Shown: positions 7,480 to 56,354 of the stretch, piece by piece
Numbering within the stretch: position 1 is the first letter of the stretch
Layout: the number at the start of each line of letters is the position of its first letter
From: Escherichia phage teqhal
Direction: 5' to 3' (one strand)
Length of the DNA stretch: 64,000 nt
Sequence record: MN895435.1
Translations under genes and position numbers: made by a program
The notes under the pieces: generated by a model
Databases searched by the model: none
Seen by the model: only the letters and a program-made list of their open reading frames with translations
What the model was told of the DNA's origin: nothing

Positions 7480-8418
7480 ATGTACAATATTAAATGCCTG
7501 ACCAAAAACGAACAATCTGAAATTGTTAAATTGTATTCAAGTGGTAATTACACCCAACAGGAATTGGCTGATTGGCAAGGTGTATCGGTTGACACAATCC
7601 GTCGTGTTTTGAAAAATGCTGAAGAAGCTAAACGCTCTAAAGTTACTATTAGCGGTGATATTACAGTTAAAGTTAATAGCGATGCAGTTATTGCTCCAGT
7701 TGCTAAATCTGACATTATTTGGAATGCATCTAAAAAATTCATTTCAATTACTGTTGACGGTGTAACTTATAACGCAACTCCTAATACTCATTCAAACTTC
7801 CAGGAAATTCTTAATCTGCTTGTAGCGGATAAGCTGGAAGAAGCTGCACAAAAAATTAATGTTCGCCGTGCTGTTGAAAAATATATTTCCGGCGATGTTC
7901 GAATTGAAGGTGGAAGCTTGTTCTATCAAAATATCGAATTGCGGTCTGGTTTGGTTGATCGTATTCTTGACTCGATGGAAAAAGGCGAAAACTTTGAATT
8001 TTATTTTCCGTTCTTGGAAAATCTGCTGGAAAACCCAAGCCAAAAAGCGGTATCTCGACTCTTTGATTTCTTGGTAGCAAACGATATTGAAATTACAGAA
8101 GATGGTTACTTCTATGCTTGGAAAGTAGTTCGCAGCAATTACTTTGACTGTCACTCAAACACCTTTGATAACAGTCCGGGTAAAGTAGTTAAAATGCCGC
8201 GTACTCGTGTGAATGACGATGATACACAAACTTGTTCTCGTGGTCTGCATGTGTGTTCTAAATCTTATATTCGTCACTTCGGTGGTTCAACCAGCCGAGT
8301 TGTAAAAGTTAAAGTACATCCACGCGATGTAGTATCAATTCCGATTGATTACAACGATGCTAAAATGCGTACCTGCCAATACGAAGTAGTTGAAGACGTT
8401 ACTGAACAATTTAAATAA
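7480..8418 (+). CDS. rIIB: rIIB protein
   Basis: 312 aa, the T4 rIIB length; immediately downstream of rIIA. Confidence 0.85.
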   Translation: MYNIKCLTKNEQSEIVKLYSSGNYTQQELADWQGVSVDTIRRVLKNAEEAKRSKVTISGDITVKVNSDAVIAPVAKSDIIWNASKKFISITVDGVTYNATPNTHSNFQEILNLLVADKLEEAAQKINVRRAVEKYISGDVRIEGGSLFYQNIELRSGLVDRILDSMEKGENFEFYFPFLENLLENPSQKAVSRLFDFLVANDIEITEDGYFYAWKVVRSNYFDCHSNTFDNSPGKVVKMPRTRVNDDDTQTCSRGLHVCSKSYIRHFGGSTSRVVKVKVHPRDVVSIPIDYNDAKMRTCQYEVVEDVTEQFK

Positions 8419-8432
8419 GGGCTTCGGCCCTT
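8419..8432 (+). other. UUCG tetraloop hairpin just after the rIIB stop
   Basis: gggc-ttcg-gccc. Confidence 0.4.
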
Positions 8433-8641: not shown

Positions 8642-8645
8642 ATAA

Positions 8646-8666
8646 GGGCTTCGGCCCTTTTGTTTT
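8646..8666 (+). terminator. rho-independent terminator
   Basis: gggc-ttcg-gccc hairpin followed by TTTTGTTTT. Confidence 0.6.
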
Positions 8667-11040: not shown

Positions 11041-11120
11041 TGAGTAATTTCCACAACGAACACGTGATGCAGTTCTATCGTAATAATCTTAAAACTAAAG
11101 GCGTCTTCGGACGCCAGTGA
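11040..11120 (+). CDS. stp: Stp peptide (26 aa; modulates the host EcoprrI/PrrC anticodon-nuclease system)
   Basis: [26 protein letters not shown]; ATG overlaps the ndd stop (TAATG); not in ORF track because under 60 aa. Confidence 0.8.
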
Positions 11121-14957: not shown

Positions 14958-15040
14958 TTTTAATAAAGCTTCTGTTCATAAGGATAAGAAGAAAGCGTTT
15001 AAAGAATCTAATCGCAAACAGAAACATAAGGGGAAGGTCT

Positions 15041-15319
15041 ATGATTATTGATTCTCAATCCGTGGTTCAATACACAATCAAAATTGATATTCTAGAAAAG
15101 CTATATAAGTTTCTACCAAACCTATACCATTCAATTGTTAATGAATTAGTTGAAGAACTACATCTTGAGAATAATGATTTCTTGATTGGAACTTATAAAG
15201 ACCTCTCAAAAGCAGGATATTTCTACGTAATTCCAGCTCCAGGAAAAAGTATTGATGATGTATTAAAAACTATAATGATTTACGTCCATGATTATGAAAT
15301 TGAAGATTATTTCGAATGA
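15041..15319 (+). CDS. arn: Arn-like anti-restriction protein (McrBC inhibitor)
   Basis: 92 aa acidic protein, the T4 Arn length, immediately upstream of asiA as in T4. Confidence 0.6.
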   Translation: MIIDSQSVVQYTIKIDILEKLYKFLPNLYHSIVNELVEELHLENNDFLIGTYKDLSKAGYFYVIPAPGKSIDDVLKTIMIYVHDYEIEDYFE

Positions 15320-15480
15320 GTCATAATCTTGAAAAAGTAATCGAGCATAATGTAGCTCAGGAACGTAAGTCGTTCAAGGAATTCGTAGAAAAAATTTTTG
15401 AAGAAAATAACACAGACCAGTTTACAAATCAAGCGTCTGATGATATTATAACAAAGTCAACTAATTGAGTGGTATAGTTA

Positions 15481-15753
15481 ATGAATAAAAACATTGATAC
15501 AGTTCGTGAAATTATTACTGTTGCGTCTATTTTGATTAAATTTTCCAGAGAAGATATTGTTGAGAATCGTGCTAATTTTATTGCATTTCTGAATGAGATT
15601 GGAGTAACGCATGAAGGTAGAAAATTAAATCAGAATTCATTCCGTAAAATTGTTTCTGAATTAACTCAAGAAGATAAGAAAACCCTCATCGACGAATTCA
15701 ACGAGGGTTTTGAGGGTGTATATCGATATCTAGAGATGTATACGAACAAATAA
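15481..15753 (+). CDS. asiA: AsiA anti-sigma70 factor
   Basis: 90 aa; MNKNIDTVREIITVASILIKFSREDIVENRANFIAFLNEIGV matches recalled T4 AsiA. Confidence 0.9.
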   Translation: MNKNIDTVREIITVASILIKFSREDIVENRANFIAFLNEIGVTHEGRKLNQNSFRKIVSELTQEDKKTLIDEFNEGFEGVYRYLEMYTNK

Positions 15754-16410
15754 TTATTTAGCCCTTCCTAATATTCTGGCCGCCTGAGCGCATATTGATT
15801 CAAGGCGGTCATTACTTATATGATCATTTCTATACCAGTACATGGTTATCGTTCCAGCATAGATATTATCCAAATTAAAATATGGACAACTGTACATGTA
15901 GTTTATTTCGGGAGTAGGCTTTTTAGTTGGTAAAAAAGCAAATTTTGAGTCAGAATAATAATGACGTCCATTTAAATGAACTATATATTCATCCATAGTT
16001 TTATCAACAGGATATCCTCCAAGTGATTTTTCAGTTATTGTTGAAGGTAATCTTCCTTCGTATGCTATAATATCAACAAAATAGTTTAAGTTTTTAGGGC
16101 GGAAAGAATACACCGCACTAAAGTCTGCCTCAGATGATATATGAACTATCTGGAGTTGTTCCAGGGCGACAGATTCAAAGCGTGCATTTCTTTCCTTTTC
16201 AATAATTTCACTGTATGTTTCATACTTTGATTGCTTATAGTACTCAAAGAAACTATCTCCCCTATACCAAACAATCGCCATCATAAATAAAAGAATTACG
16301 ACAGCTACCCGGGAAGCAAGAACCTTCCCAGTAGCGTTATCTTTGAACAAGCGATCTAGAACACCAAATAGAATATCAGAGGGCGAAAATGATATTCTAG
16401 GTGCTGCCAT
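15754..16410 (-). CDS. t: holin T (lysis and lysis-inhibition)
   Basis: 218 aa, the T4 T length; N-terminal transmembrane segment and large periplasmic domain; directly downstream of gene 38. Confidence 0.85.
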   Translation of the reverse strand: MAAPRISFSPSDILFGVLDRLFKDNATGKVLASRVAVVILLFMMAIVWYRGDSFFEYYKQSKYETYSEIIEKERNARFESVALEQLQIVHISSEADFSAVYSFRPKNLNYFVDIIAYEGRLPSTITEKSLGGYPVDKTMDEYIVHLNGRHYYSDSKFAFLPTKKPTPEINYMYSCPYFNLDNIYAGTITMYWYRNDHISNDRLESICAQAARILGRAK

Positions 16411-16442
16411 AGACCCTCCTTTTAAGGATATTTATTCAAAAA

Positions 16443-17228
16443 TTATACTCTTGAACCATATATTGTACCAACCTTAGTCCAAGTTGGAGCATTACCAGTA
16501 ACAGCTTTACCGGCCGCGCCGCCGTTATATTCTGATCCTTGCCCACGAATATTACATTTACCACCTGCGGCACCAGCATCACCGCCATTCCCGCCATTAT
16601 AGATACCATTGACAGACCCTTTACCAGGTGCAGAAATAGTACCAGCAGTAGCGCCCTGTTCCATATTAGCAGACCCGCCAGCAGCACCAAATGGACGACC
16701 GCCGCCACCGCCAAAAGTCAATTTCATTTGTGAAAAAGGAGAATAATATCCGCCTCCACCGCCGCCACCGCCTCCTGCGATAACACCATTGTTGTTAATA
16801 CGCAATCTAGTTCCAATTCCATTATTTATTGCAGTTCCTCCTGCTCCACCGGCAGAGTTATTTCCGCCATTCCCGCCACGGCCCCAAACATGCACTCCTG
16901 AATTGATATTAAGTGTCACGTATGCATTAGTTAATGAGCTAGGAAAATCTAAGCATGGAACACCAGTAGATTGAGAAACAATATTTCCTGTAATAGTAAT
17001 AACAACAGGAGTACTGCCTTGGGCTTTTATCCAGTTTATTAATGTATCTTTATTATAAGAATTACTAGCACCAATGCTATAATATACTTCTTTAGATTGT
17101 CCGGCCATTGAGCTCATCCAACCGGGAACTGAAACACGGACTGCTCTCATTGCAGCATCCATCCAACGTTGTCCAGTTTCATTCACGGCAGATTCACCAA
17201 TCCAGCCAGGAACACCTACAATTGCCAT
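16443..17228 (-). CDS. 38: gp38 receptor-recognising tail-fibre adhesin, T2 type
   Basis: 261 aa; C-terminal half has several glycine-rich runs (GGGGGGGGGYY, FGGGGGRPFGAAGG, NGGNGGDAGAAGG) separated by variable segments; downstream of gene 37. Confidence 0.8.
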   Translation of the reverse strand: MAIVGVPGWIGESAVNETGQRWMDAAMRAVRVSVPGWMSSMAGQSKEVYYSIGASNSYNKDTLINWIKAQGSTPVVITITGNIVSQSTGVPCLDFPSSLTNAYVTLNINSGVHVWGRGGNGGNNSAGGAGGTAINNGIGTRLRINNNGVIAGGGGGGGGGYYSPFSQMKLTFGGGGGRPFGAAGGSANMEQGATAGTISAPGKGSVNGIYNGGNGGDAGAAGGKCNIRGQGSEYNGGAAGKAVTGNAPTWTKVGTIYGSRV

Positions 17229-17240
17229 TAAAAATCCTTA

Positions 17241-17256
17241 GAGGGCCGAAGCCCTC
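17241..17256 (-). other. intercistronic UUCG hairpin between genes 37 and 38
   Basis: gagggc-ttcg-gccctc on the - strand, just after the gene 37 stop and before the gene 38 RBS. Confidence 0.5.
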
Positions 17257-17258
17257 TT

Positions 17259-20200
17259 TTACATAAGTTTAGATTCAAGTTCTTTTACACGAGAAGAAAG
17301 CGTTTTCACAGCTTCAACCAGAAGAGCAATCTGGGCTTGAGAAGAAACAGTGAGTATTTTATTACCCTTGCTGTCTTCTGTTTCACGGACGGCTTCTGGT
17401 AAAACGTCTTGTAACGTTTGAGCTACAATACCCGCTTCAGTTTCAATTGCCTCTCCACCGATGTATTCAGCTTTATCATAAATGACACCATTGAGTTTTT
17501 CAACTTTATCAAGTGCATTTTCGATAGGTTTGAAATTAGATTTTAAGCGAATATCAGAACGAATATAAACGTTTGGAGCATTTATATTTTTATATGAGTA
17601 CAAATCACCGTTTTGGAAACGGAATACTTGTACGCTGTTCGCATATATGTCTAATAATCCATCGCCATTTTGCTTAATACCAGTATCGCTATCACCAAAT
17701 GCTATACTATTTCCACCAAGTGCGTTATTGATATTAATACCAAATGAATTCATTTGGTTAACACCAGCTACAGTAGCATTATTTACTACAAAGCGGTTAG
17801 CTCCACCTGGAGCTTTTTCAAAGTAAGCAATATAGTTAGTTTCATCGGCAATTTCAATACGGTTACCACGAGAAGCATCGCCAGCATGAAATATTCTCAT
17901 ATTTCTTGGGTTAGCACCAGACTTATCAAAGTTAATAGAACCATTATCTTTGACATTTATGCTATTATAGAATAAAGCAGCACTGCGAACAGCTATGCCG
18001 TTATTCATTAATACTTCACCGGTTGTTAAGTTAATTGCGAAAGGACGCTTACTATTCCAATCACCGTTAACAGTTGCTTCGCCATCGGTGGCATTTTTAT
18101 CTGTAAACAGAATATAAAAACTACTGCCATCATTTCGTAGCATTGTAGCAACAGAACCAGTTTTATCGCTGTTGCTTCTAATACGAATACCAGTTTGGTT
18201 ATTAATAGCTATTTCAGAATCGGCTTCATAACGCTTAACTTTGCCGCGATCAACCAAGTTATTAAGAACATTAGCAACTTGCCCATCAACTGCTGTATCT
18301 GGAAGAGCATCCACAGGTGATTGGGTAGATGAGTTAATACCAATAACGCTAACAGTAGCATTTTCGGTACATGACCATTCACAAGTTAATTGATTGCAAT
18401 ATGTTCCGGCATAAACATAAATGTCATATGTATCTCCAGAGACGTTATTAACTGCAATATTTTTAAATGCAGCTGCAATTGTTCTTGTGTATAATACAGC
18501 ATTTAAGTCAGCAGGTCTTTCATTACTAGTACGTAAAACAATTTCAGCAATATTGCATTGTGTGAATAATCCACTATTAAATCCAGAACCACCGGCTATT
18601 TTAAAGAAGACCGTAGAAGTGGATTGTGGCATTGTTACTGTTGCAAACTTATACCATCCAGCAGTTGCTCCATAAGTAATAAATCCAGAATTAACTTTAC
18701 GATTTAGCGTGGTGTTTAAGTTAGCAAAGTTTCCTGAACCGCTAGTAATATTACCATCAGTTCCTAGTTGGGCATTTCCGACTTTAAGAGGTTTACTGAT
18801 TGACACGAAATTATCGCTTATAACAAGACCGTGTCCATAAGATTGACTATAAAGCGATAAATCACTTCCAGCGCCACCAAGACCAACATACCACGATCTA
18901 GTTCCAGCTTTAGAACCCTGCAAATAATTAGCAGAAGAAGATGAAGGAGAATCTAGAGTAAGCGCTGCATTACGTTCATTAATAGTTACTGGACATATCA
19001 TTTTAATAGTTTTAAGACTATTACTTACTTGTAATAATCCTGTACCAGATCCAGAATCTCCTAAATGAACATCATGCGACATTTTAACTGTGCCGGTGTT
19101 CAGTTCTATTATCAATGGTCTAAGATTACTTATACCGCCAGATTCTCCAGCATCTTTAGGAGTCGGGATAATATAAAGATTTCTTTCTGAGCGACGGAAA
19201 ATAGCACCATATTCGGCATTCCAAATTCTTAATGCATCAGCAGTTCCGCCGATTTTAACTTGTCCAGTAATAGAAGAACCACCTTGGACAAACAAACCAT
19301 TAGACATGGTAACATTACCGACTAAAGTGCTTAATCCATTAACTTTAAAACTTCCGTCAGTAATAATACTTCCTCTAGCATTAACAGCTCCAGCAAACTG
19401 GGTTACAACAGGACCAGTAGTTTCTGAGCCGCTTGGGGCTACACGCTGGGAATAAAAATAATAACCTTGTCCGTCAGCTACTTCAAAAACTGTTTCACGA
19501 TTACGATCGCCAGATGCGTTAAATGAATTACCCCACGCTTTAACAGTTACATAGCTTTTATTCTGACCAGCACGAGTACCGCCTTCCCACAAAATTTGCT
19601 TAGTGCCATCAATTGTAGTAGTTGGAGCGAATGTTAGCCCAGCAGTAGAATTATTAGCTGCTAAATATATGCCGTTATATATTGAAAGCTGCTTAACAGA
19701 TGTAATACCGCCATCAGCATAAAACATTACATTATTAGAGCCAGTTACCAATTTCAAAATACCTGGGTTAACTTCCATGCCTTCTTGAGTATTAATATTA
19801 GTTTTTCCTTTACCACGGAAATAGTGGTTCATTTTACCGCCAGAGTTATATCCAATGTGGGTTTGACCATCTCCAGCAGAGTTTTCATCAGCCTGTGTTT
19901 GAACCGATAAAAAAGCAGCGTTCGTTCCAGGCATAATCCATGTTCCGCCTTGGTCTTCTGAACGTCCAAATAATGCTTTACGAGTACTACGGAAACTGTC
20001 AGGAGTAATAGACGCGATAGAAAGACCATTAGCAACTAAATCATATACACCAGATCTTTTATATGATACACCAGTTGCGGCATCTCCAATGACTATATAG
20101 CATTCACCCATTGCTCCAGTGGAGCCGTAATTATTAATGTTTTCATCTGTTGTAATTGTACCAATTGCGAGTGAGCGTCGCAACACTAAAGACCCATCAT

Positions 20201-21041
20201 TGCGAAGGCCCATTTGTTTATTAACGGCTGTATTACCGGTCCACCAAGACAGTTCATCACTTTTTCCGGTTTGTGCAGAAGCTAATTCATGATAAATCGT
20301 ACCACCAGATTTTGCACGGAATTTACGAAGGTAATTAATTCCGTTTGTTTCACCAGTTCCAGGATAAACATATTGAACTAATGACTGCGAATCGTATTGT
20401 CCAAACGCTTTCGTATCAAATGAAATATTTTTAGTTACAACAGATGGACCAATCAAAGAACCTGTTCTTGTTTCAATATTACTCTGAGCGACTAAATACC
20501 CACCAGATACTAATAAATTACCAGAATCAACTTGAAAATTACCTGAGCGCGCAAATGTCCAATATTTAGATTGACCAGTTTCATCAATATAATGAATCTT
20601 CAACGAACCTTCAGAAACTAAAGTACCTAATGAAAAAGTTCCATCTTTAAAGCGCTGTTTAATTATAGGATTATATTCAGATGTGGAAGTAGCTGAGCTT
20701 AAATCTACAAAAATTGGAGCCTTTGCAGTGTGTTGACCGGACCAAGCCCCACTTCCAGTAGTACGATAATTAAACTCAATATATCCACCACTTGCTATAA
20801 TCTGCGGGCCAATTAAATTAAATTTTCCAGTCTGTGTATAATCACCAGTTTGAGTGATATTACCACTGATATTACCGCCAGCGGTAATGCTTAAGTCAAT
20901 GATATTTCCTGAATCGTCTTTAGTAAAAATTGTTCTATCTTTTAAGTTTATAGCCAATTCACCTTCGGCTAATACTGAAGCAGCAGGACGTTGACCTGCA
21001 GTTTTGCTTCTTTTAAATTGTATTTGTTTTAAAGTAGCCAT
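17259..21041 (-). CDS. 37: long tail fibre distal subunit gp37 with C-terminal chaperone-like domain
   Basis: 1260 aa; C-terminal about 120 aa (SDIRLKSNFKPIENALDKVEKLNGVIYD...) resembles the self-cleaving intramolecular chaperone domain; synteny 34-35-36-37-38-t. Confidence 0.9.
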   Translation of the reverse strand: MATLKQIQFKRSKTAGQRPAASVLAEGELAINLKDRTIFTKDDSGNIIDLSITAGGNISGNITQTGDYTQTGKFNLIGPQIIASGGYIEFNYRTTGSGAWSGQHTAKAPIFVDLSSATSTSEYNPIIKQRFKDGTFSLGTLVSEGSLKIHYIDETGQSKYWTFARSGNFQVDSGNLLVSGGYLVAQSNIETRTGSLIGPSVVTKNISFDTKAFGQYDSQSLVQYVYPGTGETNGINYLRKFRAKSGGTIYHELASAQTGKSDELSWWTGNTAVNKQMGLRNDGSLVLRRSLAIGTITTDENINNYGSTGAMGECYIVIGDAATGVSYKRSGVYDLVANGLSIASITPDSFRSTRKALFGRSEDQGGTWIMPGTNAAFLSVQTQADENSAGDGQTHIGYNSGGKMNHYFRGKGKTNINTQEGMEVNPGILKLVTGSNNVMFYADGGITSVKQLSIYNGIYLAANNSTAGLTFAPTTTIDGTKQILWEGGTRAGQNKSYVTVKAWGNSFNASGDRNRETVFEVADGQGYYFYSQRVAPSGSETTGPVVTQFAGAVNARGSIITDGSFKVNGLSTLVGNVTMSNGLFVQGGSSITGQVKIGGTADALRIWNAEYGAIFRRSERNLYIIPTPKDAGESGGISNLRPLIIELNTGTVKMSHDVHLGDSGSGTGLLQVSNSLKTIKMICPVTINERNAALTLDSPSSSSANYLQGSKAGTRSWYVGLGGAGSDLSLYSQSYGHGLVISDNFVSISKPLKVGNAQLGTDGNITSGSGNFANLNTTLNRKVNSGFITYGATAGWYKFATVTMPQSTSTVFFKIAGGSGFNSGLFTQCNIAEIVLRTSNERPADLNAVLYTRTIAAAFKNIAVNNVSGDTYDIYVYAGTYCNQLTCEWSCTENATVSVIGINSSTQSPVDALPDTAVDGQVANVLNNLVDRGKVKRYEADSEIAINNQTGIRIRSNSDKTGSVATMLRNDGSSFYILFTDKNATDGEATVNGDWNSKRPFAINLTTGEVLMNNGIAVRSAALFYNSINVKDNGSINFDKSGANPRNMRIFHAGDASRGNRIEIADETNYIAYFEKAPGGANRFVVNNATVAGVNQMNSFGININNALGGNSIAFGDSDTGIKQNGDGLLDIYANSVQVFRFQNGDLYSYKNINAPNVYIRSDIRLKSNFKPIENALDKVEKLNGVIYDKAEYIGGEAIETEAGIVAQTLQDVLPEAVRETEDSKGNKILTVSSQAQIALLVEAVKTLSSRVKELESKLM

Positions 21042-21049
21042 AAGTCCTC

Positions 21050-21715
21050 TTAATAATAGCCGAAATCTTGAACAGAATCCTTAATTACGATTTGATCAAA
21101 TCGCGGAACGTGAGAAGGTTGAGACGCAGGATTCTGTGAGAAAAAGTTTGGCGCGGTTAAATTACCTATCATAGTGTCGCCAGAACGCAACACTCTAGAG
21201 TTCGCATTTGCTGTAACAGTATTTATTGCTCCATCAACATAGTCCTTTCTAGTAAGGTCATTCGCTGCTATAGGAGCAGCTGCATCACTTCTTACTTGAC
21301 CTGCCGCAGACACAACACCTTTTGTGCTAATATCACCATTACGTGCATTAATTACAACAGTTCGGGCTGCTGAACCCTGCGATGATTTAAAACCAATACC
21401 ATTCCACGAAACAATATCAATATTTGCTACAGCAAAAGTAGCATTATCACCGTTACCTGGATAAATACCGCATGGGTTTGTGTTGTTTACAGCATACGGG
21501 ACTTGGACGCCGCCGTTAAATGTTACCTTTGATGCATAAGTACCACCATTAGCTTTAGAAACGAAATCGTTATCTGCAGCTTGTGGTTTGTTATATTCTG
21601 AATATATTTTAAATGATTTATAGAGTACATCGTCACCGGCCGGATTCAATGGAAAATTTCCTTGATGCCAAATGACAGAGCCTCCAGCTGTTGAACCTAC
21701 TTTTAAATCAGCCAT
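21050..21715 (-). CDS. 36: long tail fibre distal connector gp36
   Basis: 221 aa, the T4 gp36 length; synteny. Confidence 0.85.
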   Translation of the reverse strand: MADLKVGSTAGGSVIWHQGNFPLNPAGDDVLYKSFKIYSEYNKPQAADNDFVSKANGGTYASKVTFNGGVQVPYAVNNTNPCGIYPGNGDNATFAVANIDIVSWNGIGFKSSQGSAARTVVINARNGDISTKGVVSAAGQVRSDAAAPIAANDLTRKDYVDGAINTVTANANSRVLRSGDTMIGNLTAPNFFSQNPASQPSHVPRFDQIVIKDSVQDFGYY

Positions 21716-21738
21716 TGTATGCCCCTTTATTTTAATAG

Positions 21739-21746
21739 TATTTATA
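21739..21746 (-). promoter_or_regulatory. late promoter (TATAAATA) for gene 36
   Basis: + strand TATTTATA is TATAAATA on the - strand, about 25 bp upstream of the gene 36 start. Confidence 0.6.
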
Positions 21747-21749
21747 AAG

Positions 21750-21772
21750 AAAAAGGGAACCCGAAGGCTCCC
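21750..21772 (-). terminator. hairpin plus T-run after gene 35
   Basis: - strand gggagcc-ttcg-ggttccc followed by TTTTT. Confidence 0.5.
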
Positions 21773-21777
21773 TCAAT

Positions 21778-22893
21778 TTATACTTCTCTAAATTCTTGCC
21801 CAAACACTTTACCAGTTTTAGACGATGCTTGTGTAGGAAGTACCATTATATCCGGAGGTGAAGCAGATTCACAGATATAATTAACACGAATGCCGTTGAC
21901 GCCAAATTCAGCGGGTTTTGAAATTCCGCCATTTCTTGATACTTCAGAAAAGCTTAAATTTCGCATACCGCCTTGTCCCGCTTGAGCAGTTCTTTGTGCA
22001 TATATCGTAAATCCAACTGCATTTTCTGGAACAACTACATAATCTTCCTTTAATTCCCAAGACCCAGCTTGTCCAGTAAACTCAGCTTGTGTCGAGGAAA
22101 TATATCCGTTAGATGCATTATAAAAACGGATAGATATATTTGTTGTTCCAAGAGCAAGTAAATCGGCATCAGCATATAACTGGGCTTTAAGATAAAGAAC
22201 GTCACCAGGAATTAAATTATAATCAGAGAGTTTACTTATAGCAGCTGAAGTTGGTAGACGCGCAATTTCGTTATTAGTTCCACCAACCGCTGACATGAAT
22301 TGCTCAACACTTTCATACGTTCTTCTTGGAAACCCGGTAGCTCCGACATCTTCTAAACTGTCAAATACAACATCTAAAATAGTTTGATAATCATCTGTGC
22401 TTTTTCTATTACTTAATTTAACATGCTCTAATGCGATAGCTCTTTTAGAAGAAGTGTAAAAAGCAGCATATGATACATCAAATCTCGACAATATAGAGTC
22501 AGATGGAAAAGCAGACGTTCCGGCGGTTCTTAACCAAGATACTACTTCAGGAGGAAAATTAACCTTTCCGTTAGTTAATATAGCAACAATTCGATTATTC
22601 GTCAAAGAATTCATGAAATTAACAAAAGCAGCTGATGTAGTATCATTTGAAGTCGAAAAAGCATATGACTTACTATCAACTAATGCTCCTGTAGAAGGGT
22701 CAAAAACTCTTAAATGAAGGCCTGCGCTAAATGTTTGACTTCCGACAGGATTATCCTGAAATTTAACGTATGGTCCTGCTGTAGAAAGCGGGCAAGAACC
22801 CGCTATGCTTATTTTATATCTTACTGAATTGCTTTCCGATAAAAATGGCGTTTGGACATATCCTTGTCCAAACTCTGCCATAAATTTTTCCAT
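21778..22893 (-). CDS. 35: long tail fibre hinge protein gp35
   Basis: 371 aa (T4 gp35 is 372 aa); synteny. Confidence 0.85.
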   Translation of the reverse strand: MEKFMAEFGQGYVQTPFLSESNSVRYKISIAGSCPLSTAGPYVKFQDNPVGSQTFSAGLHLRVFDPSTGALVDSKSYAFSTSNDTTSAAFVNFMNSLTNNRIVAILTNGKVNFPPEVVSWLRTAGTSAFPSDSILSRFDVSYAAFYTSSKRAIALEHVKLSNRKSTDDYQTILDVVFDSLEDVGATGFPRRTYESVEQFMSAVGGTNNEIARLPTSAAISKLSDYNLIPGDVLYLKAQLYADADLLALGTTNISIRFYNASNGYISSTQAEFTGQAGSWELKEDYVVVPENAVGFTIYAQRTAQAGQGGMRNLSFSEVSRNGGISKPAEFGVNGIRVNYICESASPPDIMVLPTQASSKTGKVFGQEFREV

Positions 22894-22901
22894 AATACCT
22901 C

Positions 22902-25900
22902 TTATTCAACCCATTCAAATTTAACAGTTTTATTCACTGGGTCAGGAATAATGCGAACATTACCAATTCGTAAGAAATCACGAATAGTAAGATTCCCCAT
23001 TGTAGCATTATCAGATGGTAAAGCACCGATATCAGACGGCTGAGGAGGGTTACCTCCGTCAAATACCTGAACAAAACTTGACCAAGAGTTTTTGGTTTTC
23101 TGCCATGTACGTGTCCAGCGAGTGGTACGCGCTTCTGGTGTCGTTGGATAAGTAATCCAATCTTGGTAAAGCGAATCAAGTGTGTTACCAAACTGTGTCA
23201 GTGTACCAGGAGATTTAACTTCTTCGCCACGTTCTAAGTATGGAAGTCCAGTCACTTCATTAGTTTTTTCAACCATTTTAAAATAACCTGGGAACTGGTT
23301 ATAAGTGGCTGAATCGTTAATATCGATTGACCAGAATCCTACCGTATCAGATGTTGGCGCACGGGTATATAAATCAGATGTTTTAGTACCCTGAGAACGA
23401 ATTCTCGAGTTAACAGTTAAACCGCCTGAATTTATAGTAGCACCTTTGGCAATGATTAAGCTTTCACCAATTGTGACTTGACCGGATTGATTATTAATTG
23501 ATAATGGACGTAATCCATTAAATCCACCGGTCTGATCACCAGATGCAGTAAGCATAAAATATGTGCTGCCGCCATCATTCCTGATAAAGAATCCATAATC
23601 ACCGTTTATTGCTCTGAAAGCATTTGCAGACTTGCTAATGAATTCACCATTGGCTGTAACTGAACTACCAAATGTTGCTACGCCATTCGCATTCAATGAA
23701 CCGGAAGCGTTAACATTTATTGGCATCACAGTACCATTAATGCTAAACGTAATATTACCAGCTTTATTACGTTGAGAATAAAAGTGATTAGATGTTTCAT
23801 CACCAACTTCAAATACAGTAGAACGCGTTGTATCTGATCCGCCACTAAACTGATTTCCCCAAACTCTGATAGTCATCGTCTGTGCTGGGTTAGTTCCAGT
23901 TTGAGGTCCTTTCTCAAAAATCAGACGAGTTGCTGTTCCAGTATTAGAAATAGTTAATGTACTATTTGCCGAAACTGAACCACCAAACGTAGCAGTACTA
24001 GATGATACAAGAGGGGCACTCAGATTCGTTTGTTGGGTTAAGGTTAGTGAACCATTAACCGTCTGTGCAATATCCCTACGAATGAACTGAGATGAATCTA
24101 GACCATCCAATAAATTACTATCTGCAGCTTTTGCTTTTAACGGTAAATAATTTGCTAATACACGGTTTAATTCATATGGTGATATTGCATAGCTATTTTT
24201 CTCATACAGTTCTAAATCTTGGGTAGAACCGACTGTATCATTACCAACGAACGTAATTGAACCAGATGAAGTTTTAACAAAACCTCTTACCGCAGTAGTA
24301 GCTGCCCAGGTAGGTTCACTCTGCACAATCCATTTTAAATTTTTTGGAGATACAGCAGTATTTGCTGATGCTCCAGTCACAGTTTCAGACTGAGTTGCAA
24401 CTTTAATAACACCTTCCTGTGATTCGGTAGATTTAGTACTTAAAAGCTTTTTAGGAGTTATTAAAACATTATCTAATGTTCCTGTAGCAGCTTCAACTTG
24501 TGTAGCTACACGAAGTGTACCACGTTGCGTCTCATTTGCTTCAAGAATATTAAGGGTATAATGGTCCCAGAGAGTTCCTGATTCAACTAATCCAGATAGA
24601 GCAACAACAGAAGTACGATCAGTACTATTAAATCTGGTTTTAATTTTTAATGGTGTAGAGATACGAGTATCGTCGACGCCTGCGTCGAATTCAACTTGTG
24701 TAGCAATTTCAGCTATACCACTTAAACTTTCAGTTGCTCTACGGTCATTTAAAGTTTTAGGAGTGACTGCACGAGTATAATCAGTTCCTGTATTAACTTC
24801 ACTTTGCGTAGCAATTTCAATTAAACCAATTCTTCCATCAGTTGATGTCTTTTTATGTAACGTTTCTGGCGTTACAACAGCATTTGCCCATCCTTCTTGA
24901 CTCTGTCCAGCAATTACTTCACTTTCAACTGCTAAAATTACTGCACCTTGTTGCGTTGGAGTAGCTTTATACTGATCCAAAGCTTTAGGTGAAACAACTA
25001 AATTATTAGTGTTTTTATTATAAACGTTTGTACCATTTAATTCACGACTAGAAGCTGGAGTAGCGCCTGCGGTAGATACAAAAGTTACAATACCAGATAA
25101 TGATTCAGAACCTTGACGAGCTTGAAGCTTTTTAGGAGTGATGATTGTAGTATCATCGGTTCCTGCATTAGTTTCTTGCTGCGTAGCAATTTCAGCAACA
25201 CCTCTGCGAGTTTCTGTAGCAGTTCTTTCATTCAGCTTTTTAGGAGTAATGATAAGGTCATCTGCAAAAGAGAATGTGGTGTTCTGATTCACTTGAGCAG
25301 TAGTTGCTATTCTTGCAATACCTCTGCGAGTTTCTGTAGCAGTACGGTTAGCTAATGTTTCTGGAGTAATTGCTAATTCTTTTTGTGGAGAATTTTCTAA
25401 ATCGACATTAGCTTGAGCTTGTGTAGCTAAAGCAATTACGCCTAATCTTGCTCTAGTAGAATCATTCAAAGAGTCTACTCTTTCTACGGTTGGAACGTTT
25501 TGTTGTACAACCCAGTATTTTCCATCAGAATCTTCTATATAAGCAAGTTGTAAAACTGGAACATAATTAGTTTCACCGTTAAAAACTAATTCTTGAACAG
25601 TTACCCATTCAGCTTCAGGCGGATATTCTGAACGTTTTGGGAATTGCAGCAATTGAACTGAAGAAGCAATTTTATCTTCACCGGCAGCTTTGATTTTAAC
25701 TGTTTGTCCTTTTCTCATGTAATTCATGGAAATTTTAACAGTATCACCAACAGAAATATTAGTTGGAAGCTGAAGCTCAATTGTTTGAGTTGTTCCGTTA
25801 TTCGCACCAAATACCATAACTTCTTCGTTTGGACGAATATTAGAATTAGTCGTTATAATGCGTAAACGTGCTTTACTATCCCCGTCAAACAATCTCCACA

Positions 25901-26771
25901 ATTTCTCATTATCATCAAACATCAAGAAACCGTCAATCGATGTACGGCCTTCAATGGAATGAGTTCCAACTTCTTGTACTGAAGTCGTTTCATCGTATGT
26001 AGTAACAATTGTATGATAAAGTGGATTCAGTTTATCTAAATCAACGAAATTAATAATATCGCCATGATTAGCAAATCTTGGAAGTTTAACATTAATTGGT
26101 GCAGCAGAAGTAAATCTACGTACGATAAAATCATTTGATTGCGCTTGATAAGTATTCGCTGGTGTTACAACTACAGCTTCTCTACTATAATCAGCAACAT
26201 ACATTTGCCACAGACGATTACTAAAAATTAAAACTAGCTGTGACTTTGGATGAGTCATTAGTACTGAACGTACTTGTTGACCTCTGAAGTTTACAATACT
26301 TTGCACCGGAGCTACAATTAAAACTTGGTTAACTCCAGGTTTTCCTCCAATATCTTGGAGAACGATAGTATCACCATCAATTGGGGTAGATGGTAAAGTA
26401 AATGTAATATCATTACCAGCTGCGGTGTTAACCGAAATAGCTTCACCAGATTTTAATTGATATGAACCAGATGAAACCGTAATCCAGTTAGCATCGGTAC
26501 GTAATGCTCTCCAGCGTCCGCTATTAAAAGCTCCTGCCGGTTTTGGAATATCATTTATAGCAGCCCAAAAGCGGTTATCATAAATGATTACAAAATCTTT
26601 TAAATATCCACGAGTTGGATCGTATTGTTGAACTGTGTTTTCTTGAATTAAGTAATCAACGTTAACACCGTCAGTTCCTACGGTACGATCAGCTAAAGCT
26701 ACGTTGATTATTTTATCACCACCTGCGTCCAGACCGTCTTCTGCTCTGAACTTTCTTTTAATCTCGGCCAT
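22902..26771 (-). CDS. 34: long tail fibre proximal subunit gp34
   Basis: 1289 aa, the T4 gp34 length; internal repeated peptide units; synteny. Confidence 0.9.
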   Translation of the reverse strand: MAEIKRKFRAEDGLDAGGDKIINVALADRTVGTDGVNVDYLIQENTVQQYDPTRGYLKDFVIIYDNRFWAAINDIPKPAGAFNSGRWRALRTDANWITVSSGSYQLKSGEAISVNTAAGNDITFTLPSTPIDGDTIVLQDIGGKPGVNQVLIVAPVQSIVNFRGQQVRSVLMTHPKSQLVLIFSNRLWQMYVADYSREAVVVTPANTYQAQSNDFIVRRFTSAAPINVKLPRFANHGDIINFVDLDKLNPLYHTIVTTYDETTSVQEVGTHSIEGRTSIDGFLMFDDNEKLWRLFDGDSKARLRIITTNSNIRPNEEVMVFGANNGTTQTIELQLPTNISVGDTVKISMNYMRKGQTVKIKAAGEDKIASSVQLLQFPKRSEYPPEAEWVTVQELVFNGETNYVPVLQLAYIEDSDGKYWVVQQNVPTVERVDSLNDSTRARLGVIALATQAQANVDLENSPQKELAITPETLANRTATETRRGIARIATTAQVNQNTTFSFADDLIITPKKLNERTATETRRGVAEIATQQETNAGTDDTTIITPKKLQARQGSESLSGIVTFVSTAGATPASSRELNGTNVYNKNTNNLVVSPKALDQYKATPTQQGAVILAVESEVIAGQSQEGWANAVVTPETLHKKTSTDGRIGLIEIATQSEVNTGTDYTRAVTPKTLNDRRATESLSGIAEIATQVEFDAGVDDTRISTPLKIKTRFNSTDRTSVVALSGLVESGTLWDHYTLNILEANETQRGTLRVATQVEAATGTLDNVLITPKKLLSTKSTESQEGVIKVATQSETVTGASANTAVSPKNLKWIVQSEPTWAATTAVRGFVKTSSGSITFVGNDTVGSTQDLELYEKNSYAISPYELNRVLANYLPLKAKAADSNLLDGLDSSQFIRRDIAQTVNGSLTLTQQTNLSAPLVSSSTATFGGSVSANSTLTISNTGTATRLIFEKGPQTGTNPAQTMTIRVWGNQFSGGSDTTRSTVFEVGDETSNHFYSQRNKAGNITFSINGTVMPINVNASGSLNANGVATFGSSVTANGEFISKSANAFRAINGDYGFFIRNDGGSTYFMLTASGDQTGGFNGLRPLSINNQSGQVTIGESLIIAKGATINSGGLTVNSRIRSQGTKTSDLYTRAPTSDTVGFWSIDINDSATYNQFPGYFKMVEKTNEVTGLPYLERGEEVKSPGTLTQFGNTLDSLYQDWITYPTTPEARTTRWTRTWQKTKNSWSSFVQVFDGGNPPQPSDIGALPSDNATMGNLTIRDFLRIGNVRIIPDPVNKTVKFEWVE
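25201..25343 (-). repeat. in-frame tandem repeat within gene 34
   Basis: Exact 23 bp direct repeat cctctgcgagtttctgtagcagt at 25201 and 25321 (120 bp period), matching repeated peptide units of the TETRRG(I/V)A.IAT type. Confidence 0.6.
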
Positions 26772-55069: not shown

Positions 55070-55360
55070 ATGAAATCTTCTTTGCGCTTTTTAGGTCAAG
55101 AACTTGTAGTTGAAGGCGTTATTCCTGCTGATAACGCTTTTAATGAAGCAGTTTACGATGAATTTATTAAAATTTTTGGAACAGATAAAAAGTTCGGAAT
55201 TTTTCCTTCTGAAAATTTTTCAAAGTCAGAACAGACTGAAAGTATTTTTCAGGGTGTAGTAACAGGTAAATTTGAGTCAGAAGCTCCGGTAAAAATTGAA
55301 GTTTATATTGAAGACAGTTTAGTTGCTTCAGTTGCTGCTTTCATTTCATTCCGTAAATAA
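55070..55360 (+). CDS. hypothetical protein, 96 aa
   Basis: ORF downstream of the cassette; followed by a hairpin shared with convergent gene 54. Confidence 0.5.
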   Translation: MKSSLRFLGQELVVEGVIPADNAFNEAVYDEFIKIFGTDKKFGIFPSENFSKSEQTESIFQGVVTGKFESEAPVKIEVYIEDSLVASVAAFISFRK

Positions 55361-55365
55361 AAATA

Positions 55366-55385
55366 TGGGGACCGAAAGGTCCCCA
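55366..55385. terminator. hairpin between convergent genes (55070 ORF on +, gene 54 on -)
   Basis: tggggacc-gaaa-ggtcccca GNRA-loop hairpin in the 28 bp gap between convergent stop codons. Confidence 0.55.
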
Positions 55386-55388
55386 TTG

Positions 55389-56354
55389 TTATATTGCTCC
55401 TAATATTTTACTTTGCGAATTGACAATTCCTGTCATAGTATTAATGTTTGAAATGCTTCCTGCAGTTCCACCTAATCTACTGAGTCGTGAAAGAGAATTA
55501 GATAGTCCAGTAACACCTCCACTATTTCCGAGAACGCTTTGAATACCATTTATAGCAGCAGATTCAAGCCATTCAAGCGCAGCTTGCCTATCAACTGCTC
55601 CAGCCTGCATGACTCTATACGCAAAAGTAACATCAAATGTAGTTATTTGGTTATCTCCATCATATGATAATTCAGGAGCGCTCACTGACATTGGAATGCA
55701 TCCGGTGAACATTACCGCAGTATGAGGTAATCCATTGCGAGAATGAAGATTAACCTGAATATCTGCCTCGACATCTTGTGGCAAAGCACGCAGTCCAGTT
55801 ACTGGGTCTTGAACAGCGTTAACCCAGTCTTGCATTGCACGATAGTTACAAGCTTCTGAATCCATTCTAAATGAAATAACCAAAGGGTCTAATTCTCTCC
55901 CAGTTATACGAATATTAGGAGAGTTGTAGTTCCAGTCAGTTTCATAGGATAATCTATTCTCTGGCATTTTTACAGAGTATATCATCAATCCAGATGAGTT
56001 ATATGCCATGTTAAAGAAGTCAATTAAATATGTACCAACTGTAAATGAGCCTAATAAACTTTGAACTGTACGTTGACTCATGGCACCAATAAGATATTTA
56101 CTAACCCCTGATTTTCTTATCAGTTTTTGTGTGCCAGCTGTAATTAGCGTGGTAATTCCCTGATTAATATCACCTTGAGTTAATCCTAGCCAATCTGAAT
56201 TTAGGCCCAAGTTATTATAAGAAAAGTTGCTAATTGAACTTATCAACGAAGAGCTTTTAGTTGATGGAGTTGTTGCAAAAACGCAGCTAAACATATTATT
56301 ACGTTGGAAATCTGCGTTTATTGCTTGATTATTAAATTCCTCTAAAGAATACAT
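55389..56354 (-). CDS. 54: baseplate tail-tube initiator gp54
   Basis: 321 aa (T4 gp54 is 320 aa); synteny 29-48-54. Confidence 0.85.
   Translation of the reverse strand: MYSLEEFNNQAINADFQRNNMFSCVFATTPSTKSSSLISSISNFSYNNLGLNSDWLGLTQGDINQGITTLITAGTQKLIRKSGVSKYLIGAMSQRTVQSLLGSFTVGTYLIDFFNMAYNSSGLMIYSVKMPENRLSYETDWNYNSPNIRITGRELDPLVISFRMDSEACNYRAMQDWVNAVQDPVTGLRALPQDVEADIQVNLHSRNGLPHTAVMFTGCIPMSVSAPELSYDGDNQITTFDVTFAYRVMQAGAVDRQAALEWLESAAINGIQSVLGNSGGVTGLSNSLSRLSRLGGTAGSISNINTMTGIVNSQSKILGAI

Follow-up and report, generated by a model that had tools for sequence, protein, structure and literature searches.

The junction of genes 37 and 38 in Escherichia phage teqhal (record MN895435.1; the whole 64,000-nt stretch analyzed is referred to here as the window) harbors a hairpin that is real, conserved, and more than a product of chance. 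It is a textbook intercistronic UUCG hairpin of the T-even phages, of a kind that is already known. The odds are about even that it serves as a sense-strand element of the late 36-37-38 RNA, where it would provide a stable 3' end or boundary for the 36-37 part and modulate the expression of gene 38. The features of the junction are as follows.

17240..17257, - strand: intercistronic stem-loop, with 5' arm AGAGGGC (17257-17251), loop UUCG (17250-17247), and 3' arm GCCCUCU (17246-17240)
CDS 21041-17259, - strand: gene 37, distal long tail-fiber subunit, with its UAA stop at 17259..17261
17235..17239, - strand: Shine-Dalgarno (SD) sequence AAGGA of gene 38, directly adjoining the 3' arm, with the AUG 6 nt downstream
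16443..17228, - strand: gene 38, T2-type adhesin tip of 261 aa, with its start codon at 17228-17226
17257..17260, + strand: TTTT run, in which T17257 pairs with A17240, T17258 is the spacer, and T17259-17260 lie opposite the AA of the gene 37 UAA
21739..21746, - strand: late promoter motif TATAAATA, the sole perfect match upstream of genes 36-37-38

The - strand RNA reads AUG UAA A AGAGGGC UUCG GCCCUCU AAGGA UUUUUA AUG across the junction, with 1 nt separating the gene 37 stop from the stem. The initial annotation had recognized GAGGGC-CGAA-GCCCTC at 17241-17256 on the + strand, followed by TTTT at 17257-17260, and had placed the hairpin, on the - strand, past the gene 37 stop and ahead of the gene 38 ribosome-binding site. 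Both the string and the placement agree with the sequence, inspection of which gives a full stem of 7 bp without mismatch (17240-17257), because A17240 pairs with T17257. The hairpin is predicted to fold with a free energy of -13.4 kcal/mol on the - strand, where the UUCG loop is closed by a C-G pair, and -12.0 kcal/mol on the + strand, where the loop is CGAA; the - strand fold has a z-score of -1.9 against shuffles of its 51-nt context. Perfect hairpins of at least 7 bp with at least 5 G-C pairs are enriched in the window (8 distinct ones versus 0.71 +/- 1.12 in dinucleotide-preserving shuffles). No match at E <= 1 to a covariance model of Rfam 15 was detected in 15000-23000 on either strand. 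The tight packing of stop codon, hairpin, and SD may be accounted for by genome compaction alone.

Conservation was assessed across 56 related loci. Wherever a true spacer separates genes 37 and 38 in these loci, the junction carries a G+C-rich hairpin. The stems of different lineages are unrelated in sequence (GGGC/GCCC, GGCC/GGCC, GGGGC/GCCCC, GGUGAGGG/CCCUCACC, and GGAGAGGC/GCCUCUCC). Since the stems fell out of register when triloop and tetraloop variants were aligned together with MAFFT, pairs were counted in a fixed 20-nt frame for the nine tetraloop variants. Within these nine, 93.7% of cells are paired and four of the seven pairs show changes on both sides, giving a covariation score of 0.46, compared with 0.205 in shuffles (0 of 500 reach 0.46) and also above all slid registers. 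The hairpin is absent where the 37/38 stop and start codons overlap (L014, L030, L036, L040, L056/L058, and L063), indicating that it is dispensable in principle.

The 37/38 hairpin also belongs to a class that recurs in the window. All ten G+C-rich UUCG hairpins there carry UUCG on the gene-sense strand; those at 8644, 46003, and 21774 are followed by a U-tract (terminators), and those at 8416, 11100, 63915, and 17240 by a Shine-Dalgarno sequence. One sequence, AAGGGCTTCGGCCCTT, occurs three times in the window, forming near-identical hairpins. At the 37/38 junction, the C-G-closed UUCG likewise lies on the - strand, that of both genes. Extra-stable C(UUCG)G tetraloop hairpins were reportedly described by Tuerk and colleagues in 1988 from intercistronic regions of T4, and the 37/38 hairpin resembles that T4 class in its loop, its short G+C-rich stem, its intercistronic site, and its location on the transcribed strand, with no difference in kind. 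Together, the compensatory stem changes and the sense-only orientation of UUCG indicate selection on the late mRNA.

The closest counterpart is that of phage K3 (X04747), which is identical in sequence from the last gene 37 codons through the hairpin, AAGGA, and the gene 38 ATG, with the same genes in the same position. This record annotates the element as 'stem-loop structure; pot. transcription terminator' with inverted repeats A/A' and marks AAGG as 'alternative pot. rRNA binding site (gene 38)'. The T4 gene 38 hairpin is homologous as well (T4 reads TAAGGAGAGGGGCTTCGGCCCTTCTAAATATG, the window TAAAAGAGGGCTTCGGCCCTCTAAGGATTTTTAATG): it occupies the same site right past the gene 37 stop, shares the C(UUCG)G loop, and differs only slightly in its stem (GAGGGGC/GCCCUUC rather than AGAGGGC/GCCCUCU). 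T4 gp38 is a chaperone unrelated to the T2-type adhesin of the window, yet nearly the same hairpin is kept despite the different gene 38 and gp37 C-terminus. Among the relatives, the hairpin lies between 9 nt inside gene 37 and 18 nt past its stop, and its distance to the gene 38 start ranges from 5 to ~40 nt. This closeness to the gene 37 stop, together with the retention in T4, indicates that the hairpin goes with the end of gene 37.

T4 gene 38 has been described as a 'split' SD/AUG site bridged by the hairpin (Nivinskas et al. 1999, as cited in PMC3014915). There, the stem separates an upstream SD, GGAG, from an AUG that follows the stem by 5 nt, and the 22-nt spacing is cut to ~5. In the window, however, only UAAA precedes the stem and the SD AAGGA lies 3' of it, so the bridging role is inapplicable and a T4-style split Shine-Dalgarno was rejected. 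A gene 60-type bypass from the last gene 37 AUG to the gene 38 AUG was likewise rejected: the arrangement AUG-UAA-hairpin-AAGGA-AUG is present in the window, but the take-off codon lies outside the hairpin and varies, the last gene 37 codon in relatives and T4 being AAU, AAA, UUC, UUA, or GCA.

The transcript bearing the hairpin most likely starts at the 21739..21746 promoter, and T4 has the same promoter layout upstream of 36-37-38. The interval from the hairpin to the gene 38 AUG contains no TATAAATA-like late-promoter motif, and the closest perfect match is that at 21746-21739. On this message, the predicted extra-stable C(UUCG)G stem-loop, anchored right behind the gene 37 stop, would fold once transcribed or once the terminating ribosome leaves. 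It could then act as a boundary that blocks 3'-to-5' exonucleases, perhaps with a little 3'-end formation, such that the 36-37 RNA segment would outlive the gene 38 segment. At the same time, it may hold the neighboring ribosome-binding site of gene 38 open and in a defined context, and the net effect would be to set gp38 output relative to gp37. A virion with T2-type fibers requires roughly one gp38 for each gp37 trimer.

Intercistronic stabilizer hairpins give differential operon expression in the malE-malF REP, Rhodobacter puf, and E. coli pap systems. The arrangement in the window is like theirs in that a stable stem-loop lies between co-transcribed genes and more of the upstream product is needed; the 37/38 hairpin, though, falls far short of REP elements in length and adjoins the next ribosome-binding site. 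The decay-barrier step proposed here is modeled on these bacterial operons and would operate by analogy with them. The literature searched yielded no mapped transcript 3' ends, half-lives, or protein ratios for the window phage or its close relatives. For translation, opening the gene 38 initiation region is predicted to cost 1.95 kcal/mol when the hairpin is present, 2.67 kcal/mol when it is deleted, and 3.88 kcal/mol when its 5' arm is mutated; the computed effect on accessibility is thus small (0.7-1.9 kcal/mol). The suggestion in the initial annotation that the hairpin may affect the gp37:gp38 ratio is plausible and consistent with the account of T4 gene 38 in PMC3014915, which treats genes 38 and 25 of T4 jointly and states that destabilizing the intervening structure lowers translation initiation efficiency.

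That account also bears on an alternative, namely that the hairpin purely organizes gene 38 translation initiation in a T4-like manner, presenting or insulating the ribosome-binding site or uncoupling it from ribosomes terminating on gene 37, with no role in RNA stability. The T4 homologue, which sits between SD and AUG, is reported as an initiation enhancer in PMC3014915. The distance from stem to SD is 0-2 nt in many T2-like lineages, hairpins occur at every junction with its own SD and at none of the overlapping junctions, and the initiation region has a lower predicted opening energy when the hairpin is present; the K3 depositors, moreover, considered AGAGG, in the 5' arm, a candidate ribosome-binding site. 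However, in the window the SD follows the stem and has a normal 6-nt spacing to the AUG, making bridging unneeded, and in distant relatives the hairpin is 27-40 nt from the start codon yet near the gene 37 stop. Given also the small size of the computed effect, a purely initiation-related role is considered unlikely.

Another possibility is that the hairpin is a partial intrinsic terminator (attenuator) on the - strand, stopping some late polymerases past gene 37. It is labeled as a potential terminator in K3 X04747 and as 'putative transcriptional terminator' in NC_054917 (G50). In addition, a lax consensus scan lists the - strand hairpin, with a T5 run beginning 6 nt past the stem, and one relative (L009/L046) has a true U-tract past the hairpin with d = +30 (d-scores combine d'Aubenton-Carafa coefficients with ViennaRNA energies; they are approximate and valid for comparisons within this analysis only). 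In the window, by contrast, AAGGA directly follows the stem and precedes the U5 run, the tail scores 1.74 (24th percentile), d is -18.7, and only one of 21 distinct junction variants reaches d > 0 in the sense direction. Moreover, with no promoter between the hairpin and its AUG, gene 38 must be read by transcripts that cross the hairpin, which argues against an efficient sense terminator; that candidate was rejected on the AAGGA tail and this dependence on read-through. The depositors' reading of the K3 element as a possible sense terminator is accordingly not supported by the scoring here as far as an efficient one is concerned, and partial attenuation is improbable as well.

The initial annotation had further proposed that the hairpin terminates + strand early transcripts from the asiA side that run antisense into the late tail-fiber genes. 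The genes asiA and t converge at 15753/15754 with a 0-nt spacer and no hairpin, such that early transcripts must run antisense into t, 38, and 37, and the 37/38 hairpin is the first strong G+C-rich hairpin on their path. On the + strand its intrinsic-terminator discriminant is weakly positive, with a tail score of 3.70 (96th percentile of all window positions) and d = +12, or +19.6 with the 6-bp stem; the tail reads UUUACAUA past the 7-bp stem and UUUUACAU past the 6-bp stem and fails the consensus scan rule (5 T's in 8). Stray + strand transcripts may physically end at this site. T17258 is the sole unconstrained T of the four, and the run is explained by the UAA complement and one A-U pair of the stem, which argues against an antisense stop as the function under selection. 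Tails 1 nt past any gene stop in the window score 2.89 +/- 0.69, and 16% of them reach 3.70.

The relatives give a similar picture. Antisense d > 0 occurs in 11 of the 21 distinct 37/38 hairpins, against the single sense case, but this is no more than the neighboring constraints would give, roughly equaling the ~40-55% expected of any hairpin 0-1 nt past a stop (an estimate assuming a normal spread around the stop-codon control). No antisense U-tract is found in T4, whose 37/38 hairpin has an antisense d of -37.6, or in distant relatives with a long spacer between hairpin and start; some lineages lack any hairpin, and the orientation of the UUCG loop is sense-specific. The literature searched yielded no usable strand-specific 3'-end or antisense transcript map for T4 or the T-even phages. 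On the + strand, the resemblance to a terminator is mostly a by-product of the stop codon of gene 37.

Two further comparisons weigh against an antisense terminator. The 1.5 kb of antisense RNA between asiA and the hairpin is untranslated, C-rich, and G-poor, with a C/G ratio of at least 1.5 in 45% of 78-nt windows compared with 1% in sense early RNA; judging from this composition, it should be a good Rho substrate, and Rho should act before the hairpin is reached (for general background on Rho, see the Hinton 2010 review, PMC2988021). A convergent-junction terminator of the window, at 55365-55386, is likewise a G+C-rich inverted repeat foldable on both strands, but it has a 9-bp rather than a 7-bp stem and is flanked on either side by a T-rich tail (d = +21 and +23). 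A bidirectional convergent-junction terminator was rejected for the 37/38 hairpin, as the two genes are co-directional and the U-rich tail is on one strand only. Selection for antisense termination is accordingly very unlikely.

A broader scenario, with a similarly slim chance of being correct, is that the junction of stop, C(UUCG)G hairpin, and SD constitutes a two-faced T-even module. Such a module would be a stabilizer or insulator in the sense direction, its A-rich 5' flank would make it a weak terminator on the complement, and hairpins of this kind might serve as fail-safe stops limiting anti-late and anti-early read-through RNA from promoter-less, terminator-less convergent junctions such as asiA/t. 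The antisense d values of stop-hairpin-SD junctions in the window are +12 at 17240, +14.6 at 11100, and +2.6 at 8416. Finally, a functionless hairpin, either hitch-hiking as a common T-even cassette or left as a short homology patch at a recombination boundary of the host-range module, would fit both the recurrence of near-identical copies (AAGGGCTTCGGCCCTT) in the window and the occurrence of the hairpin, in T4 and the window, as an island of similarity between non-homologous flanks, but it is extremely doubtful in view of the compensatory changes and the unrelated stems swapped in at the same position, which argue for selection on pairing.

The hairpin is already known: its annotation in K3 dates back decades, and work on the T4 counterpart has treated it as the split ribosome-binding site of gene 38. 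T4-type and T2-type phages differ in gene 38 and in where its SD lies, yet both retain the hairpin where gene 37 ends, which suggests that the T4 split site is a secondary co-option of an element of the gene 37 3' end. If the hairpin does limit early antisense transcripts, this would be a small addition to the old 'anti-late RNA' problem.

On the + strand, GAGGGC-CGAA-GCCCTC at 17241-17256 is followed by TTTT at 17257-17260, which confirms the hairpin and T-run described in the initial annotation; the placement on the - strand, after the gene 37 stop and ahead of the gene 38 ribosome-binding site, likewise holds. The complete perfect stem comprises 7 bp (17240-17257), and only one T of the run is free, one being part of a stem A-U pair and two the complement of the UAA stop. 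The late-strand RNA reads AUG UAA A AGAGGGC UUCG GCCCUCU AAGGA UUUUUA AUG, so the stem begins 1 nt past the gene 37 stop and ends flush with the gene 38 Shine-Dalgarno (SD) sequence. The predicted folding energy is -13.4 kcal/mol for the - strand form and -12.0 kcal/mol for the + strand form. The window contains 8 distinct perfect hairpins with stems of 7 bp or longer and 5 or more G-C pairs, far more than the 0.71 +/- 1.12 obtained in dinucleotide shuffles, and the 37/38 hairpin matches no Rfam family. The gene layout, on which the window ORF list and the annotation of MZ501066.1 (Escherichia phage FriedrichMiescher, Bas39, Tequatrovirus; reverse complement, 100% identical over 2.3 kb around the hairpin) agree, is as follows:

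15481-15753, + strand: asiA, last of the early + strand genes at this end
16410-15754, - strand: t, late gene, holin
17228-16443, - strand: gene 38, T2-type adhesin
21041-17259, - strand: gene 37
beyond gene 37, - strand: genes 36, 35 and 34, late genes

In MZ501066.1, the gene 34 product (bas39_0084; window 22902-26771, -) carries the note 'long tail fiber proximal subunit Gp37', which seems to be a naming error for Gp34. The sequence at 16429-16436 (-), upstream of t, is AATAAATA; in T4 its counterpart is the perfect late promoter TATAAATA.

The hairpin is an already known element, represented by the phage K3 annotation, the T4 gene 38 hairpin and the T4 class of UUCG hairpins. The K3 record X04747, whose sequence between the end of gene 37 and the gene 38 ATG is identical to that of the window, labels the 18 nt "stem-loop structure; pot. 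transcription terminator" and names inverted repeats A and A'. It annotates two possible gene 38 ribosome-binding sites, the 5' arm and, as an alternative, the AAGG that follows the stem. The RefSeq record of phage G50 (NC_054917) annotates it as a putative terminator, and T4 carries nearly the same hairpin at its 37/38 junction (TAAGGAGAGGGGCTTCGGCCCTTCTAAATATG).

Junctions between the gene 37 stop and the gene 38 start were read in 33 IMG/VR and 23 metagenome loci, fetched from an alignment of gp38 relatives, and every one with a real intergenic spacer has a G+C-rich hairpin just 3' of the gene 37 stop. Stems vary by lineage (AGAGGGC/GCCCUCU, AGGGCC/GGCCCU, AAGGGGC/GCCCCUU, AAGGGUC/GACCCUU, GCCCC/GGGGC, GGUGAGGG/CCCUCACC, CAGUGAGGGG/CCCCUCACUG and GGAGAGGC/GCCUCUCC), and most of the loops read UUCG in the sense RNA. 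Across nine tetraloop variants, pairing holds in 93.7% of cells, four of the seven pairs change on both sides, and the covariation score (0.46) is higher than in any of 500 shuffles or any slid register. Loci L014, L030, L036, L040, L056/L058 and L063, which carry T2-type gp38, lack a hairpin, their stop and start codons overlapping or nearly adjoining (e.g. TAATG); two junction designs thus exist, namely tight coupling, or a hairpin with its own SD. The hairpin is never far from the gene 37 stop, lying between 9 nt inside the gene and 18 nt past its end, with 5 to about 40 nt separating it from the gene 38 start, and it is kept in T4 despite a different gene 38 and gp37 C-terminus. It is therefore a feature of the gene 37 end and not of a particular gene 38. 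In the metagenomic locus L057, the gene 37 UAA stop lies within the hairpin loop (AGGGGC-UUAAUU-GCCCCU), so that the 5' arm is coding sequence.

About ten G+C-rich hairpins with UUCG loops occur in the window, all with UUCG on the same strand as the local genes, a 1-in-1024 outcome (one direction) under equal odds:

3135, 8416, 8644, 11100, 46003, 50798 and 52978, + strand: UUCG hairpins
63915, 17257 and 21774, - strand: UUCG hairpins

The RNA motif C(UUCG)G is extra-stable and strand-specific, unlike its complement C(CGAA)G; together with the uniform orientation, this suggests that selection acts on the sense transcript. These hairpins divide by what follows 3', some having a terminator-like U-tract and others (8416, 11100, 63915 and the 37/38 hairpin) an SD. 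At the gene 35/36 junction, the hairpin GAGGGAGCC-UUCG-GGUUCCCUU (21774-21753, -), which includes a G-U pair, is followed by the T-run UUUCUUUA (terminator score d = +30) and immediately by the late promoter TATAAATA (21746-21739, -), a terminator-promoter pair nearly identical to that of T4. An identical 16-mer hairpin, AAGGGCTTCGGCCCTT, occurs three times (8417-8432, +; 8644-8659, +; 63915-63900, -), each sense to local genes, and could represent a recurring cassette or convergence; the 37/38 hairpin has one base pair more.

The initial annotation proposed that the hairpin stops early + strand transcripts running antisense into the tail-fibre block. The asiA (15753, +) and t (15754, -) stops converge with no intergenic bases and no hairpin at their junction, so early and late transcripts must enter each other's genes; T4 has the same arrangement. 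Terminator likeness was scored after d'Aubenton-Carafa, combining a decaying T-tail score with hairpin energy per nucleotide (approximate coefficients, ViennaRNA energies; d > 0 is terminator-like). The + orientation does look more terminator-like, with d = +12 (tail 3.70, 96th percentile of all window positions) for the 7-bp stem and +19.6 (tail 4.22) for a 6-bp stem, versus -18.7 (tail 1.74) in the sense direction, and a role as antisense stop is possible but not favoured. A hypothetical hairpin placed 1 nt after each of the 95 gene stops in the window gives an antisense tail of 2.89 +/- 0.69, with 16% reaching 3.70. Among 21 distinct junction hairpins, d exceeds 0 in 11 antisense and 1 sense, the former in line with the 40-55% estimated from the stop-codon control values, and the T4 hairpin scores -37.6 antisense. 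The + strand RNA from the asiA stop to the hairpin (15754-17239) is untranslated and C-rich (C 24%, G 17%), largely because it is complementary to glycine-rich gene 38, and C/G is at least 1.5 in 45% of its 78-nt windows versus 1% in sense early mRNA. Opposite the glycine-rich part of gene 38 (16440-16870, +), C/G reaches 2-2.8 over about 400 nt, and a transcript across this very C-rich, G-poor stretch would be an unusually good Rho-loading substrate. By established Rho biology, untranslated + strand RNA of this composition would be expected to end before 17240. At another early/late junction, where an alt-like gene (ending at 55360, +) converges with gene 54 (ending at 55389, -), a 9-bp G+C-rich hairpin at 55365-55386 (ATGGGGACC-GAAA-GGTCCCCAT) has a T-rich tail on each strand (d = +21 and +23) and looks like a genuine bidirectional terminator; the 37/38 hairpin, in contrast, is of another kind and does not lie at a convergent early/late junction. 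Partial termination of stray + strand transcripts at the 37/38 hairpin is physically possible, and any such antisense termination is probably incidental.

On the sense strand, the interval from the hairpin to the gene 38 AUG contains no late-promoter motif, so translation of gene 38, which is required for adsorption in T2-type phages, must rely on transcripts that run through the hairpin; the sole perfect upstream motif precedes gene 36. Given this need and the AAGGA tail, the hairpin cannot be an efficient terminator in the sense direction. The layout at 17226-17264 (-), with AUG as last gene 37 sense codon, UAA, the UUCG hairpin, SD-like AAGGA and the gene 38 AUG 33 nt downstream, superficially resembles the T4 gene 60 bypass, probably by coincidence, since the last gene 37 codon varies in relatives and T4 (AAU, AAA, UUC, UUA, GCA).

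In T4 gene 38 mRNA, a structure between SD and AUG shortens their 22-nt spacing to 5 nt, and destabilising mutations, taking genes 38 and 25 together, lower translation initiation (review PMC3014915). This split arrangement is absent here, where no SD-like sequence lies 5' of the stem and AAGGA, on its 3' side, has a normal 6-nt spacing to the AUG. In folding calculations, the opening energy of the gene 38 initiation region is 1.95 kcal/mol for the intact hairpin, 2.67 when the hairpin is deleted and 3.88 when its 5' arm is mutated, which suggests that the hairpin slightly insulates this region. The effect on the gp37:gp38 ratio raised in the initial annotation stands as a possibility. The hairpin is best read as a stable element that marks the 3' boundary of the 36-37 portion of the late message. 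On the model of intercistronic stabiliser hairpins, it would block exonucleases, perhaps with slight 3'-end formation, and would also fix the RNA structure around the gene 38 ribosome-binding site. As an outcome, gp38 would be made in a smaller amount than gp37, T2-type fibres carrying one gp38 per gp37 trimer.
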